In this document: piece by piece, positions 3,018 to 52,055 of the stretch
Layout of the letters: each line of letters opens with the position of its first letter
How positions within the stretch are numbered: the stretch's first letter is position 1
IMG/VR virus record: IMGVR_UViG_3300025425_000012
Strand: one strand, 5' to 3'
Length of the DNA: 64,000 nt
From: a virus
The notes under the pieces: generated by a model
The model's database searches: none
Seen by the model: only the letters and a program-made list of their open reading frames with translations
What the model was told of the DNA's origin: nothing
Position numbers and translations under genes: made by a program

Positions 3018-3275
3018 TCACCCCAATTTATACAGCAAGTGACCAACTTCGTCAGTAACTCTTTGTTTAAACTCTGGAAAGGATATAGTATCTTCACTTT
3101 TACAAAATTGTAGATTAAGAGGATGCTCAACACCATCAATATATGTAAATAGGAAAATATCATCATTGGGGAAACAACGCATAGAAACATTGTATGCTAC
3201 TTTGTTTATTGTTATACGCATGACTCTCCAATAAAAATAGGCCCGTTCTGTTGCAAGGTGGAGCCCATACCCCAT
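3018..3275 (-). CDS. hypothetical protein
   Basis: 85-aa ORF on the coding strand of the minus block. Confidence 0.3.
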   Translation of the reverse strand: MGYGLHLATERAYFYWRVMRITINKVAYNVSMRCFPNDDIFLFTYIDGVEHPLNLQFCKSEDTISFPEFKQRVTDEVGHLLYKLG

Positions 3276-3721
3276 GTCGTTACGCTGCTAGAGCGTAACC
3301 CATAGGTGCACTATTTTTGTTTGCATCTATAAAGTTTCTTGCGGTTACAGTCGCTTGCGCACTGGCTTCTAGCTTACTCTTTGATACCTGTCGATCCTAT
3401 TTCGACCCCATCATCTACCTACTAAGTTCATTCTTTATCGTTACTAAGCGCTTAGCATGAATATAACGAGTTATCGTAGTAGGTAGGTGGTGGAGTCGCT
3501 GGGTACTGCCCCCAGGTCCAGAATATCTCCAATTCACATAATTGAAGCGATGATTTTATTATACTTCGTTTCTTAGTAGCTTTTCTAAATCTTTTTCATG
3601 TGGCTCATACTCTACCCATAGATCAGGACCAGAGATTTCCCCATGTTGTGGAATGTTACGAGCAGCTATTACACCTGATAAAAAGGCGTGTTTTAGCATA
3701 CGTGCAATTAGCAGTGTCATG

Positions 3722-8570: not shown

Positions 8571-8850
8571 TAGGCATATCGGCTCTGGTTATTCTAACTG
8601 GGATATTCGACGTACAATTCGTGAAGCAGAAAATATTTCTAGGTGGAATCCGTGGCTTACGCATGAGTGGATTGAAGAAGCTCGTAATGCAATGACTCTT
8701 GATAAACCTTTCTATAGTGAGTTTAACCAAGCAGCTTCTCGGATCAATCACAATTGGGTTTGGATGAGACAGTATACATGGTTTGATGAGACAGAGTTCT
8801 GGTCAATGCATGGAGAGTCTCGTGGTATTACCCTGATTGAGCTAATTTAA
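8545..8850 (+). CDS. hypothetical protein
   Basis: 101-aa ORF overlapping the upstream gene (coupled). Confidence 0.35.
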   Translation: MAKRRALPDRHIGSGYSNWDIRRTIREAENISRWNPWLTHEWIEEARNAMTLDKPFYSEFNQAASRINHNWVWMRQYTWFDETEFWSMHGESRGITLIELI

Positions 8851-8906
8851 ATAAAATAATACTTCCTATCTACCGATAAATATGCTATTATAAGGAACAA
8901 ATAAGC

Positions 8907-9290
8907 ATGTACTTTAAAATTACTGGCCGTAACCCGTATCGTGACCTAGTTCGCAACGCTCGTAAGATTTGTCTGGAAGACATTAGCGATGATGAACGTA
9001 TGACAGAGTTTCGCAATTTATACAAACTCTTGAAACCACGTATGAGGGAAACAGAAGTGTTTTTGAACTCTCACCCTGCGTTTAATGCGCGGTGTGAACA
9101 CTGGAACCAGCTTGATGTACGGTCTATTAAACCTATGACCAACATTAAAAACCCTTGGTTGGCTTTTAAGCGTACCTTTGAACGGGCTATCGCCCATAAA
9201 CAAAAAACTTCAGTGGGAGATCTTGTGTCACGCGAACTAGCGTGGCTAAACGCAGATAACCACCGTAATGACTGGATTAATGACAAGTAA
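8907..9290 (+). CDS. hypothetical protein
   Basis: 127-aa ORF, preceded by aggaacaaataagcATG. Confidence 0.35.
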   Translation: MYFKITGRNPYRDLVRNARKICLEDISDDERMTEFRNLYKLLKPRMRETEVFLNSHPAFNARCEHWNQLDVRSIKPMTNIKNPWLAFKRTFERAIAHKQKTSVGDLVSRELAWLNADNHRNDWINDK

Positions 9291-21544: not shown

Positions 21545-21794
21545 TTAACTGCTATCACTTTTGAAAAATTCTATTACTCGGGATTGTGGGTCACCACCTT
21601 TCTAGGTAATAGGTAAAGACTCTAATAAGCGGCTTCCCTGTTTCGCAATAAGCGGTGCCCAGATTAGAATTGTGATAGAAGCGACAGTTAATTCTTTTAT
21701 ATAGTATAACGCTTCCTGCCCCACCCCTCGCCTTCTAAGCGAGACCTTAACGGTGGAAGGACGGTCCGGGGTTCGATTCCTCCAGGGAGTACCA
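21545..21794 (+). ncRNA. promoter-driven structured leader / ncRNA with tRNA-like 3' domain (T-arm CGGGG-TTCGATT-CCTCC, ...AGGGAGT-A-CCA)
   Basis: No ORF. Direct repeats AATAAGCGG x2. T-loop and ACCA end present but no matching 5' acceptor strand found. Confidence 0.3.
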
Positions 21795-26002: not shown

Positions 26003-26029
26003 GATTTTCGGGGAGTTAGCTCAGAGGTA

Positions 26030-26171
26030 GAGTACCTGGTACGCGATATCAGGAGGTCGGAACTGTAACATGCGCGGCATTTACAAATATCAGCTGTAAC
26101 TTTTGTAAATGTGATATAACAGTAAGGGTTCGAATCCCCCACTTCTCACCATAAAGATTAATAAAAATGAA
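26030..26171 (+). tRNA. tRNA-like gene with ~70-nt insertion (Arg-GCG-like anticodon arm; possible intron or disrupted tRNA)
   Basis: Acceptor GGGGAGT/ACTTCTC (two G.U), D GCTC-AGAGGTA-GAGT, stem CTGGT/ATCAG with loop ACGCGAT, then an insert carrying a perfect 10-bp hairpin CATTTACAAA...TTTGTAAATG. The T-stem is weak (3 bp). Confidence 0.3.
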
Positions 26172-27632: not shown

Positions 27633-27707
27633 GCCTGTATAGCATTGTGGCAATGCAGCAGCCTTCAAAACTGACGTAAGTGGGTTCGACACCCTCTACA
27701 GGCACCA
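27633..27707 (+). tRNA. tRNA with anticodon TCA (reads UGA): putative opal-suppressor tRNA; amino-acid identity uncertain (Gly/Trp-like)
   Basis: Perfect 7-bp acceptor GCCTGTA/TACAGGC, D GCAT-TGTGGCA-ATGC, anticodon loop CTTCAAA (U33, A37), T GTGGG-TTCGACA-CCCTC, A-CCA. The anticodon stem is weak (3 bp: GCAGC/ACTGA). The anticodon arm is paralogous to the tRNA-Gly(UCC)-like gene at 28526. Confidence 0.45.
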
Positions 27708-28525: not shown

Positions 28526-28608
28526 GCGCGCATAACTTCGTGGAGATTGGTATCTTCAGCAGCCTTCCAAGCTGTGAGTAAGGAGTTCGATTCTCCATGC
28601 CCGCTCCA
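28526..28608 (+). tRNA. tRNA-Gly (anticodon TCC)-like with expanded D region
   Basis: 3' two-thirds (CAGCCTTCCAAGCTGT GAGTA AGGAGTTCGATTCTCCA TGCCCGC T CCA) closely parallels E. coli glyT. Acceptor GCGCGCA/TGCCCGC has one C.C mismatch. The D region is about 7 nt longer than canonical. Confidence 0.4.
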
Positions 28609-29823: not shown

Positions 29824-29909
29824 GCTCTAGTGGCGGAATGGTAGACGCAGCAGTCTCAAAAATTGTCCGAAGATAGTAGGTGCAGGTTCGACTCCTGTCT
29901 AGAGCACCA
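29824..29909 (+). tRNA. tRNA-Leu (anticodon CAA)
   Basis: Perfect acceptor GCTCTAG/CTAGAGC, D GGCGGAATGGTAGACGC, stem GCAGT/ATTGT, loop CTCAAAA, long variable arm CCGAAGATAGTAGG, T GCAGG-TTCGACT-CCTGT, A-CCA. Confidence 0.65.
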
Positions 29910-29911
29910 AT

Positions 29912-30079
29912 ACTCCCGTAGCTCAGATGGTAGAGCAGCCTTTAGTAGCTTAGTTATTATGTACAGGAAAGTTAACAAGAATGTACACAAGATCTTAGTG
30001 AACACGGTGTGTCGCAGCAAACTTAGCAAATCTGTGCACAGATAGCTAAACTTAGGTTCGAGTCCTGCCGGGGGTTCCA
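29912..30079 (+). tRNA. tRNA-like gene with ~95-nt insertion (possible intron-containing/disrupted tRNA)
   Basis: 5' ACTCCCG-TA-GCTC-AGATGGTA-GAGC and 3' TTAGG-TTCGAGT-CCTGC-CGGGGGT-T-CCA pair as an acceptor (ACTCCCG/CGGGGGT). The insert contains a 14-nt palindrome ATCTGTGCACAGAT. The anticodon arm cannot be placed. Confidence 0.3.
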
Positions 30080-30136
30080 AATAGCAGTTTAGATTACTAG
30101 ATGTTTATATAGTATTCTAAACTATAAAGGATTTAC

Positions 30137-38425: not shown

Positions 38426-38880
38426 AAGAATTGGCGGTATAGCGTCATTAAGGATACCATATAGCAATATATGCAAAGAGGTGATTTCTACATAACCTCA
38501 CTACTCTAGTAGTAGCCTATCTATAAAACCCTAAGTTAGTTGTAACCGTGTATGCATGAAGTGCAACGCTTCATTAATGGAGCTAGGTAAGAAGTTAAGT
38601 ATATAGTCCGAAAGGATAAGTCCAGGCCAACGGTGAGGACGAATACGGTGGGAGCTGTAACTACGTAATTCCAACTTAACGATTACTAAATACTAATAGG
38701 AGATTACGTTATAGTCTGACTATTCGCGTAGAAAGGCGACGTAATAACACAAACGGTGAGGGCTTTAACGAGCCAAAGTCGTGAAGTGTGGTTGAGTATC
38801 CCGCAAGGAGAAAAACAGGAGGTGTGTTGCATTTTGTATCTAACAAGGTATGAAGCAACTGGAACAGCACATCTTAGTAG
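38426..38880 (+). ncRNA. candidate long structured non-coding RNA (no ORF >60 aa, GC-richer than surroundings)
   Basis: Promoter-proximal, ORF-free, multiple local hairpins. Ends at a tRNA-like element. No family recognised by eye. Confidence 0.25.
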
Positions 38881-38952
38881 ATTAACTTAGTCCAATGGTT
38901 AGGACGTCTGATCCCACATCAGAAGTTAAGAGTTCGAGTCTCTTAGTTTTTA
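38881..38952 (+). tRNA. tRNA-like pseudo-element (CCA-anticodon-like loop TCCCACA; U.U mismatches in acceptor; followed by T-run)
   Basis: D GTCC-AATGGTTA-GGAC, stem TCTGA/TCAGA, T AAGAG-TTCGAGT-CTCTT. Acceptor ATTAACT/AGTTTTT pairs only 5 of 7. Positions 33 and 37 are both C, which is non-canonical. Confidence 0.3.
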
Positions 38953-39454
38953 TGAAAAAAGCGAAAGACTGTTCCGGTATATTGTTAAAAGTGCTTAATG
39001 CCTTAGTCGAAAGACAATAAGGCTCATGATAGCTCGCAAGGCAGGATTGATTGTTCGGAAAGAAGACGTAATAGTTTAGCGACTATGAACTGCCCGACGA
39101 AGGTAGACGGAAGATTGAAAGACGAGTAGCAATATGCGACAGGAGAACCGCCTCTCCTCAAAAAAGGCAGCACTGAGAGATACTAGGATAGCTTCGGCAC
39201 TTAGTGGATACGAATTAACGCTCCATAGCAACGGATACGGTACGGTTCTAAGGCTCTCACTCGATGGTGTAATCTCAGCCAATCTACAAAAAAACTTTGA
39301 TGTTAGATAAAGCTAACACGACCAGAGATAACACTGGGTGCTAAAGTGATACTAGCAAAACACAATCCGTGTCAGTTGCGTTACCCGCTGGCTAATGGTG
39401 GTATGCTGTGCCCACTAACTATAATTATTTTAATGATACATAGAATACCAATAT

Positions 39455-39528
39455 ACCTTGTGGACCCTTTTGATATGGGTATGGGCGCGAGTTCAATGTT
39501 CTAGGTTCGAATCCTGGACAAGGTACCA
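39455..39528 (+). tRNA. tRNA-like pseudo-element with degenerate anticodon arm
   Basis: Perfect acceptor ACCTTGT/ACAAGGT, D ACCC/GGGT, T CTAGG-TTCGAAT-CCTGG, A-CCA. The anticodon region TGGGCGCGAGTTCAATG has no stem. Confidence 0.3.
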
Positions 39529-43180: not shown

Positions 43181-43256
43181 GGGGTCGCATGTTCCAAGGG
43201 GGCGACGGCGCTTTGCAAGCACTGTGTGAAGGGTTCGATTCCCTTCGATTCCACCA
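43181..43256 (+). tRNA. tRNA-Ala (anticodon TGC) with G3:U70 identity pair; weak D-stem
   Basis: 76 nt with canonical numbering. Acceptor GGGGTCG/CGATTCC (G3.U70, G4.U69), stem GGCGC/GCACT, loop TTTGCAA, T AAGGG-TTCGATT-CCCTT, A-CCA. The D-stem TGTT/GCGA is poor. Confidence 0.45.
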
Positions 43257-51869: not shown

Positions 51870-51958
51870 GGGTTCTGCAATAAGGCTTCCGTGGGGGGCG
51901 ACGGGTTGTAGCCCCGTTCCGGAAACGGCACGAGGTTCGACTCCTCCGGAACCCACCA
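51870..51958 (+). tRNA. tRNA-Tyr-like (anticodon GTA) with irregular, enlarged D region; possible degenerate duplicate
   Basis: Acceptor GGGTTCT/GGAACCC, stem ACGGG/CCCGT, loop TTGTAGC, variable hairpin CCGGAAACGG, T CGAGG-TTCGACT-CCTCC, A-CCA. The D region is 24 nt. Confidence 0.35.
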
Positions 51959-51970
51959 AATATAGTTAAT

Positions 51971-52055
51971 GGGTAGATAAAGCTAGGGGTTCTAGCACGC
52001 GGACTGTAAATCCGTTCTTTGACCGGGAGAGGTTCGAGTCCTCATCTGCCCACCA
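51971..52055 (+). tRNA. tRNA-Tyr (anticodon GTA)
   Basis: Acceptor GGGTAGA/TCTGCCC, stem GCGGA/TCCGT, loop CTGTAAA, long variable arm, T AGAGG-TTCGAGT-CCTCA, A-CCA. 85 nt. Confidence 0.6.

Follow-up and report, generated by a model that had tools for sequence, protein, structure and literature searches.

A phage tRNA-derived gene with an expanded arm in place of the anticodon arm

The window analysed here, a 64,000-nucleotide stretch of the IMG/VR virus record IMGVR_UViG_3300025425_000012, is part of a large phage genome and includes a tRNA island together with a two-piece tmRNA and a GOLLD RNA. Positions 29912-30079 (+ strand) of this window hold a 168-nt tRNA-derived gene, the parts of which can be read directly from the sequence. 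A canonical class II tRNA-Leu(CAA) gene (29824-29909, +; called by ARAGORN, 53.8 bits with Rfam) is located directly upstream, and a spacer of 2 nt (AT) separates it from the start of the element at 29912. The 2-nt spacer and the encoded CCA of the element follow the pattern of the tandem tRNAs of the island, and the two genes are probably cotranscribed. Of the other ARAGORN-called tRNAs of the island that were compared, nearly all encode CCA too, the exceptions being Gly-GCC, tRNA-Arg(UCU) and the tRNA-Trp embedded in the GOLLD RNA.

The 5' acceptor strand ACTCCCG (29912-29918, +), which is followed by TA, pairs at seven of seven positions with the 3' acceptor strand CGGGGGT (30069-30075, +), including a U3.G70 wobble, and the discriminator T (30076, +) and the CCA (30077-30079, +) complete the 3' end. 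The D arm GCTC-AGATGGTA-GAGC (29921-29936, +) contains A14, G15, G18 and G19, in agreement with the Rfam tRNA alignment. The same alignment places an expanded arm (29938-30046, +) in the position of the anticodon arm (positions 27-43), followed by the variable loop TAAAC (30047-30051, +), the C48 of which can form the Levitt pair with G15, and by the T arm TTAGG-TTCGAGT-CCTGC (30052-30068, +), which also matches the T-loop motif. Four of the five pairs of the T stem are formed, with a U49.C65 mismatch and a U50.G64 wobble, and the usual core nucleotides are all there (U8, A14, G15, G18, G19, C48, U54-U55-C56 and A58). The D stem and the T stem are separated by 115 nt (29937-30051), compared with approximately 22 nt in a class I tRNA, an excess of approximately 93-95 nt.

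ARAGORN in its default mode and a whole-window Rfam search at the gathering threshold both miss the element. When the element is searched alone, the Rfam tRNA model (RF00005) matches it from end to end with 28.7 bits (E = 2e-4), below the gathering threshold of 29, and in the alignment 107 nt, treated as a local end, replace 15 model positions of the anticodon arm. We also built a covariance model from 19 normal tRNAs of the same window; it likewise matches the element over its full length and gives 41.9 bits (E = 4.5e-10), a score that exceeds those of the island's own class II tRNAs. Several of the features that define RF00005 are present: the acceptor stem has 7 bp, the D arm is complete, the T arm carries its conserved loop and the 3' end is CCA. 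The probability that seven acceptor pairs would arise by chance at positions set by the D and T arms is approximately 0.001 (0.375^7). Because both model matches run from end to end, a chance arrangement is rejected, and the element is confirmed as a genuine tRNA-derived gene. The two overlapping open reading frames (29863-30045, +; 29856-30080, -) are mechanical translations of the RNA and are artefacts.

Two sequence features stand out in the expanded arm. An imperfect apical hairpin identified by repeat search (29949-29998, +) has 17-nt arms that are 76% complementary, and its core consists of two TGTACA copies at 29960-29965 and 29982-29987. A perfect 14-nt palindrome, ATCTGTGCACAGAT (30030-30043, +), is evident from the sequence, can form a 5-bp stem with a UGCA loop and sits roughly where the anticodon arm would be expected. 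These results agree with an earlier note made from the sequence alone, which had proposed a tRNA-like gene with canonical 5' and 3' arms, an insertion of approximately 95 nt, the palindrome with the TGTACA copies, and two reading frames that merely translate the RNA; every one of these features was found.

At the base of the expanded arm, only G27-C43 and C28-G42 are left, and the remainder is AU-rich and folds irregularly. A 5-bp anticodon stem with a 7-nt loop (U33, purine 37) is found neither in place nor anywhere in the insert and, as the element has no anticodon loop, it cannot read a codon. The folding energy of the insert is no better than that of shuffled sequences (z = -0.91). A promoter or terminator within the insert was tested and rejected, and no ribozyme family in Rfam matches the element at E values up to 10. 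The motif CTTAG occurs four times in the insert, with a p value of only approximately 0.03, and is accounted for by internal duplications.

The possibility of a removable intron was addressed with an excision test, in which every single segment was removed and the product was required to have an anticodon stem with at least four of five pairs, U33, R37 and a normal variable region. No solution is obtained for the 168-nt element, and a relaxed version (loops of 7-9 nt, with U33 and R37 not required) gives no fully paired stem. A two-intron scheme yields a single implausible stem-loop with the anticodon ACA and four of five pairs. When the test is applied to four insert-bearing tRNAs of other huge phages, a unique solution with five of five pairs is obtained for each (Cys(GCA) and Asn(GUU) of contig L154, Thr(UGU) of L163 and Arg(ACG) of L165), and the test is therefore able to detect real introns. 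In these four genes, a perfect tRNA results once a single segment is taken out of the 5' side of the anticodon stem, whereas the element is not restorable. Nor do the sequences that border the insert correspond to the 5' and 3' halves of an anticodon arm. The locus is therefore not an intact tRNA into which a segment was simply inserted; the arm has been replaced. Every single-excision model fails, and the reading of the 168-nt element as a tRNA with a removable intron is not supported. The earlier note had held that two interrupted tRNAs in one island argue for a mechanism rather than chance, and had named an intron, an insertion element or a processed precursor. The exclusion of chance stands, given the model scores, and the two halves do belong together; the part that is not supported is a mechanism that yields a tRNA, since no single excision restores one and the positive controls pass.

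The excision test is also failed by the tRNA-like gene at 26010-26151 in the same island, by an expanded tRNA-like gene with a full frame in the tRNA array of another phage (L069 3758-3897), and by L154 6779-6916, which has an insert of the same family as both restorable L154 genes. The inserts of 44-57 nt at L154 3908-4041, 4142-4269 and 6779-6916, L163 7249-7369 and L165 4215-4350 (-) all interrupt the anticodon stem on its 5' side, following positions 27-30. The three L154 inserts have conserved sequence in common, including a CCC-GCAA-GGG hairpin, which suggests that they may form a mobile mini-intron family.

An unconventional maturation, by several excisions, trans-splicing or editing, would place the element among the poorly understood tRNA introns of huge phages, and we regard this as decidedly unlikely. 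Such introns are real, as the four clear cases in other phages indicate, and are termed "enigmatic" in a preprint on Lak megaphages and other huge phages, in which oversized tRNAs are described (Devoto et al., 10.1101/356790). Additionally, the L165 tRNA-Arg(ACG) carries the 10-mer GTCGCAGCAA, also present in the arm of the element, within its excisable 52-nt insert, and the intron option of ARAGORN reads the locus as a tRNA-Thr(AGT) with a 94-nt intron. However, the product of that reading has three of five anticodon-stem pairs and A34, and in tRNA arrays the intron mode is unreliable and returns many chimeric false calls. ARAGORN applied to brute-force deletions of the locus gives scattered and inconsistent isotypes. 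The failure of single excision, even when relaxed, and the one poor candidate from two excisions also argue against this explanation. A group I intron was rejected, as Rfam gives no match at E values up to 10 and the insert of approximately 95-107 nt is too short for the conserved P1-P9 ribozyme core of approximately 200 nt or more. A bulge-helix-bulge intron of the archaeal type, in which a 4-bp helix lies between two 3-nt bulges, was rejected as well, with four loose matches versus 1.4 expected (p = 0.08), the best of which leaves a tetraloop hairpin and not an anticodon. A scan of 20 open reading frames revealed neither a splicing endonuclease nor RtcB.

Examination of the whole window with the covariance model reveals 40 tRNA or tRNA-like genes, all on the + strand, 29 of which are listed by ARAGORN and 11 of which are missed. 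Several of the overlooked genes look like decoding tRNAs that escaped ARAGORN because their D arms are unusual: Gly(UCC) at 28526-28608, Ala(UGC) at 43181-43256 with G3:U70, Tyr(GUA) at 51971-52055, a probable Tyr(GUA) at 51870-51958 and an Arg(UCU)-like gene at 21711-21794. The default annotation has neither Ala nor Tyr isotypes; the missed genes supply both and add a second Gly isoacceptor, Gly(UCC). When these atypical tRNAs are counted, all 20 amino acids are covered without the 168-nt element, which is therefore not needed for decoding. The gene at 27633-27707 has the anticodon UCA and is called SeC by ARAGORN, yet its length of 75 nt and its shape are ordinary, and it is probably an opal suppressor; the large genes of the phage read through in the standard code. 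At 3189-3591 (-), a two-piece (permuted, alphaproteobacterial-type) tmRNA gene with the tag ANKNSAPMGYALAA suggests an alphaproteobacterial host. The GOLLD RNA (38819-39281, 167 bits) contains an embedded tRNA-Trp-like gene at 38881-38952.

Three genes of the island have a tRNA frame without a 7-nt anticodon loop: 29912-30079, 26010-26151 and 39456-39528. The second of these (26010-26151, +), the other interrupted tRNA to which the earlier note refers, is real and has a full tRNA frame with 27.1 bits in the Rfam tRNA model and 31.7 bits in our own model. Its anticodon arm reads CCUGGUA-CGCGA-UAUCAGG and lacks a 7-nt loop. Approximately 70 nt are inserted in the variable region, where CTGTAAC, a Tyr-type anticodon-loop heptamer, occurs twice. 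No similarity was found between this insert and that of the 168-nt element. The third gene (39456-39528) has a GCGA tetraloop for an anticodon loop and lies approximately 175 nt downstream of the GOLLD RNA.

Thirteen contigs of up to 148 kb encode the exact neighbouring protein, and all are 99.3-100% identical to the window; they come from related ENA and Logan assemblies and, presumably, from Ace Lake in Antarctica. No diverged homologue of the whole element was found, every carrying contig falling within this range of identity. For a neighbouring gene, the nearest homologue, which is NadR-like, is 62% identical at the protein level, and the adjacent 71-aa open reading frame has no homologues. 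An exact 28-mer spanning the 5' junction has no match in IMG/VR, and a search with the 5' half, in which the D loop was left free, returns nothing other than normal tRNAs, most of them a phage tRNA-Met/Ile2(CAT) that is widespread and shares the acceptor of the element. Loci reached through three neighbouring proteins contain no similar insert, and no similarity to the 168-nt element was found in cultured phages. A two-anchor metagenome scan returned only tandem-tRNA false positives, a scan that missed the source contigs as well. At approximately 30113-30126, a presence/absence polymorphism is observed: in three contigs (L116, L117 and L120), 135 additional nt separate the element from the downstream 71-aa open reading frame, and the other contigs match the window.

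The phage is known from a single population, in which two alleles of the element occur; they differ by seven substitutions, all within 25 nt (29966-29990) at the top of the apical hairpin; the tRNA frame and the remaining insert are identical. The seven substitutions are not cleanly compensatory, and the minimum-energy folds of the two alleles differ. A diversity-generating retroelement or a gene-conversion donor was considered for this cluster and rejected, as no second copy was found.

Parts of the gene itself recur in degenerate form within the insert: GTAGCTTAG can be set against GTAGCTCAG, and AAACTTAG occurs twice. Towards its 3' end, the insert (30028-30045) is identical at 13 of 18 positions to the anticodon-stem and variable-arm region of tRNA-Leu(CAA) (29859-29876), with equal spacing to the T arm, which hints that part of the element may have come from a duplication inside the array. 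The internal copies and the stretch resembling the 3' part of tRNA-Leu would be expected if the element were a decaying tRNA pseudogene, a functionless remnant, transcribed or tolerated, that lost its anticodon arm by illegitimate recombination or internal partial duplication. This is the main rival to a tRNA-like RNA, and we consider it possible, although somewhat doubtful. It is in line with the folding of the insert, which is not above chance, with the T-stem mismatch, and with the seven substitutions in 25 nt, which indicate that the apical part is weakly constrained; the Lak-phage preprint likewise reports oversized "pseudo tRNAs" from huge phages (10.1101/356790). The mismatch and wobble of the T stem and the wobble of the acceptor fit some decay, and the shuffled-level folding of the insert and the different folds of the alleles count against a tRNA-like RNA. 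However, the core and the acceptor are intact, yet the old anticodon arm has left no trace, which is uneven for neutral decay. The presence of three anticodon-less tRNA frames in one compact island also speaks against a pseudogene, as does a 30-nt segment of the insert that is found in unrelated phages.

This segment, TGTCGCAGCAAACTTAGCAAATCTGTGCAC (30010-30039, +), has GTCGCAGCAA as its core and matches, at 25 of 30 positions, an acceptor-plus-T-arm element of two phages of approximately 310 kb, L163 and L169, which are mutually 92% identical. In both, the match is followed closely on its 3' side by a T arm and by an acceptor strand that completes a 7-bp stem; the flanks are dissimilar, and the L163 locus has no proteins in common with the window. 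A scan of IMG/VR for the 10-mer GTCGCAGCAA with a T loop downstream of it returned eight sites. Six of these, from five phage lineages, belong to oversized tRNA-like elements, and the phages concerned range from a 19-kb contig to 473 kb. The match extends beyond the 10-mer only in L163 and L169, and the provisional grouping of the GTCGCAGCAA elements, in which the motif is placed between the region of the D arm and the T arm, was made after seeing the data. The probability of the 25/30 extension by chance is approximately 1e-4 given eight candidates, a post hoc estimate. In bacterial genomes, a 19-mer pattern gave nine matches, all of which lack a T arm downstream and look like chance occurrences within coding regions. 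Because the 30-nt segment is common to unrelated phages, part of the arm does not appear to be junk, and the match is the one hint that part of the arm may be under selection or exchanged among phages. A different RNA gene was observed in the tRNA array of a 463-kb phage contig (L161 4030-4350), namely a bacterial class A RNase P RNA with 208 bits.

The order of the parts, with acceptor, D arm, long insert in place of the anticodon arm, T arm, acceptor and CCA, is also that of tmRNA, and a tRNA-like module joined to a stem is the design of bacterial YrlA. A miniature ribonucleoprotein RNA of either type, in which the tRNA-like domain would be combined with a short tag frame or with a stem that binds a TROVE-like protein, is nevertheless very improbable. 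A frame of 11 codons (GUC|GCA GCA AAC UUA GCA AAU CUG UGC ACA GAU AGC UAA) ends 2 nt before the T stem, and its GUC followed by GCA resembles the resume-codon context of E. coli. However, the encoded tag, AANLANLCTDS*, is atypical and lacks the usual ..AA ending, and the frame of the motif is inconsistent in other phages. Pair 3:70 is U.G and not the G3:U70 needed for alanylation, pseudoknots are absent, and no tmRNA model match covers the element. With 168 nt, it is also much shorter than the two-piece tmRNA of approximately 360-390 nt already in the same window.

With respect to a Y-RNA-like role, phage Ro-type proteins use tRNA-like Y RNAs, and a tRNA-like RNA partner is expected in jumbo phages with ROT/TROVE proteins. 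The island contains a gene for a DUF2828/DUF7788/VWA protein (54426-55967) and a HAD_SAK_2 RNA-repair protein. We take DUF2828 to be a TROVE-type (Ro-like) family; the Pfam output and a PDB search, which gave no match, do not reveal a Ro-like nature of the protein. YrlA (RF02553) resembles the element in combining a tRNA-like module of acceptor, D and T arms with a long stem, and the YrlA of M. smegmatis is cut by RNase P and receives CCA; a putatively TROVE-related gene is present in the element's island. The topology is permuted between the two, with the termini of the element at the acceptor and its long arm closed. The Ro-binding motif GNCGAA is absent from the element, which is not beside the protein gene, and there is no true YrlA model match; a match of 26.5 bits is an artefact of a tandem tRNA junction, and YrlA identity was rejected.

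Better candidates adjoin the DUF2828 gene, 24 kb from the element. Five tandem hairpin RNAs (53788-54425) are located directly upstream of this gene, with units of the form 5'-(T)AGG-N4-5-(T)TACAGCAAA...N'4-5-CCTG-3' and variable stems that are complementary in every unit. Unit 1 encloses a tRNA-Arg(UCU)-like gene (53810-53883), and two other units have T-arm-like hairpins. As this layout is that of YrlA, the hairpins are good candidates for Y-RNA partners of the putative Ro-like (DUF2828/VWA) protein. The only relative of this protein in IMG/VR is encoded on L160 (44% identity), and two hairpin units of the same type occur just upstream of its gene (8790-9050). Their stems differ in sequence and are still complementary (AGGTAAG/CTTACCT and AGGTTCA/TGAACCT), a covariation that supports an RNA. 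A link between the 168-nt element and the repeated motif upstream of the DUF2828 gene was rejected, as its match of 12.7 bits is at chance level (mean shuffle maximum, 14.2).

Comparison with other systems reveals further similarities. The oversized tRNAs of Lak-type phages also have inserts of tens to hundreds of nucleotides, occur in the tRNA arrays of very large phages, fit no known intron class and are near-invariant within populations (10.1101/356790). The species 1 and 2 RNAs of phage T4 (rnaC and rnaD) are small stable RNAs in a phage tRNA cluster, a setting similar to that of the element; rnaC has a T-arm-like 3' domain and matches the tRNA model at the T arm only, with 13.3 bits, whereas the element matches over the full frame with 41.9 bits. 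In engineered tRNA scaffolds, reportedly described by Ponchon and Dardel in 2007, a cargo RNA takes the place of the anticodon arm and the acceptor, D and T parts are retained, an arrangement that is said to give tRNA-like processing and stability. These scaffolds are laboratory constructs with the same design as the element, and a comparison of its arm with a cargo is an analogy only.

Taken together, we give an even chance to the explanation that the 168-nt element is a non-decoding tRNA-like RNA that undergoes tRNA-style processing. The parts read by the processing enzymes would have been kept (the 7-bp acceptor, the elbow of the D and T loops, G15-C48 and the encoded CCA), with an irregular arm of approximately 107 nt in place of the anticodon arm. 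The element would be transcribed together with the tRNA-Leu(CAA) 2 nt upstream, RNase P would cut at its 5' end and by the same cut free the 3' end of the tRNA-Leu, and 3' trimming to the CCA would leave a stable RNA of approximately 168 nt; in this way, we infer the expression, processing and stability of the RNA. Its function, if any, may be to present the extra arm on a tRNA-shaped body, as a scaffolded small RNA or as a decoy for a tRNA-binding factor. A broader proposal, which we consider unlikely, is that the element and 26010-26151 belong to a so far undescribed type of natural tRNA scaffold carried by large phages, in which a cargo arm, in some cases with a common GUCGCAGCAA-type module, takes the place of the anticodon arm, the host tRNA machinery matures the RNAs, and the products serve as decoys or platforms in tRNA conflict, for example with tRNA-targeting defence nucleases or in partnership with phage RNA-repair proteins. 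Inserts that can be excised from tRNAs in other huge phages contain the GUCGCAGCAA-type module as well.

The tRNA arrays of large phages contain odd members that standard tools skip, as with the 11 of 40 genes missed by ARAGORN here, and sorting them into introns, atypical functional tRNAs and anticodon-less RNAs alters the count of phage decoding capacity. The excision test with its positive controls is a simple sorter for such loci. If the element is a pseudogene, it is a record of the turnover of a tRNA array. The tRNA-like RNA favoured here hints at a group of small phage RNAs that may exploit host tRNA processing. If its arm is functional, it would be the equivalent in nature of an engineered tRNA scaffold and a candidate participant in the conflict over tRNA between phage and host.
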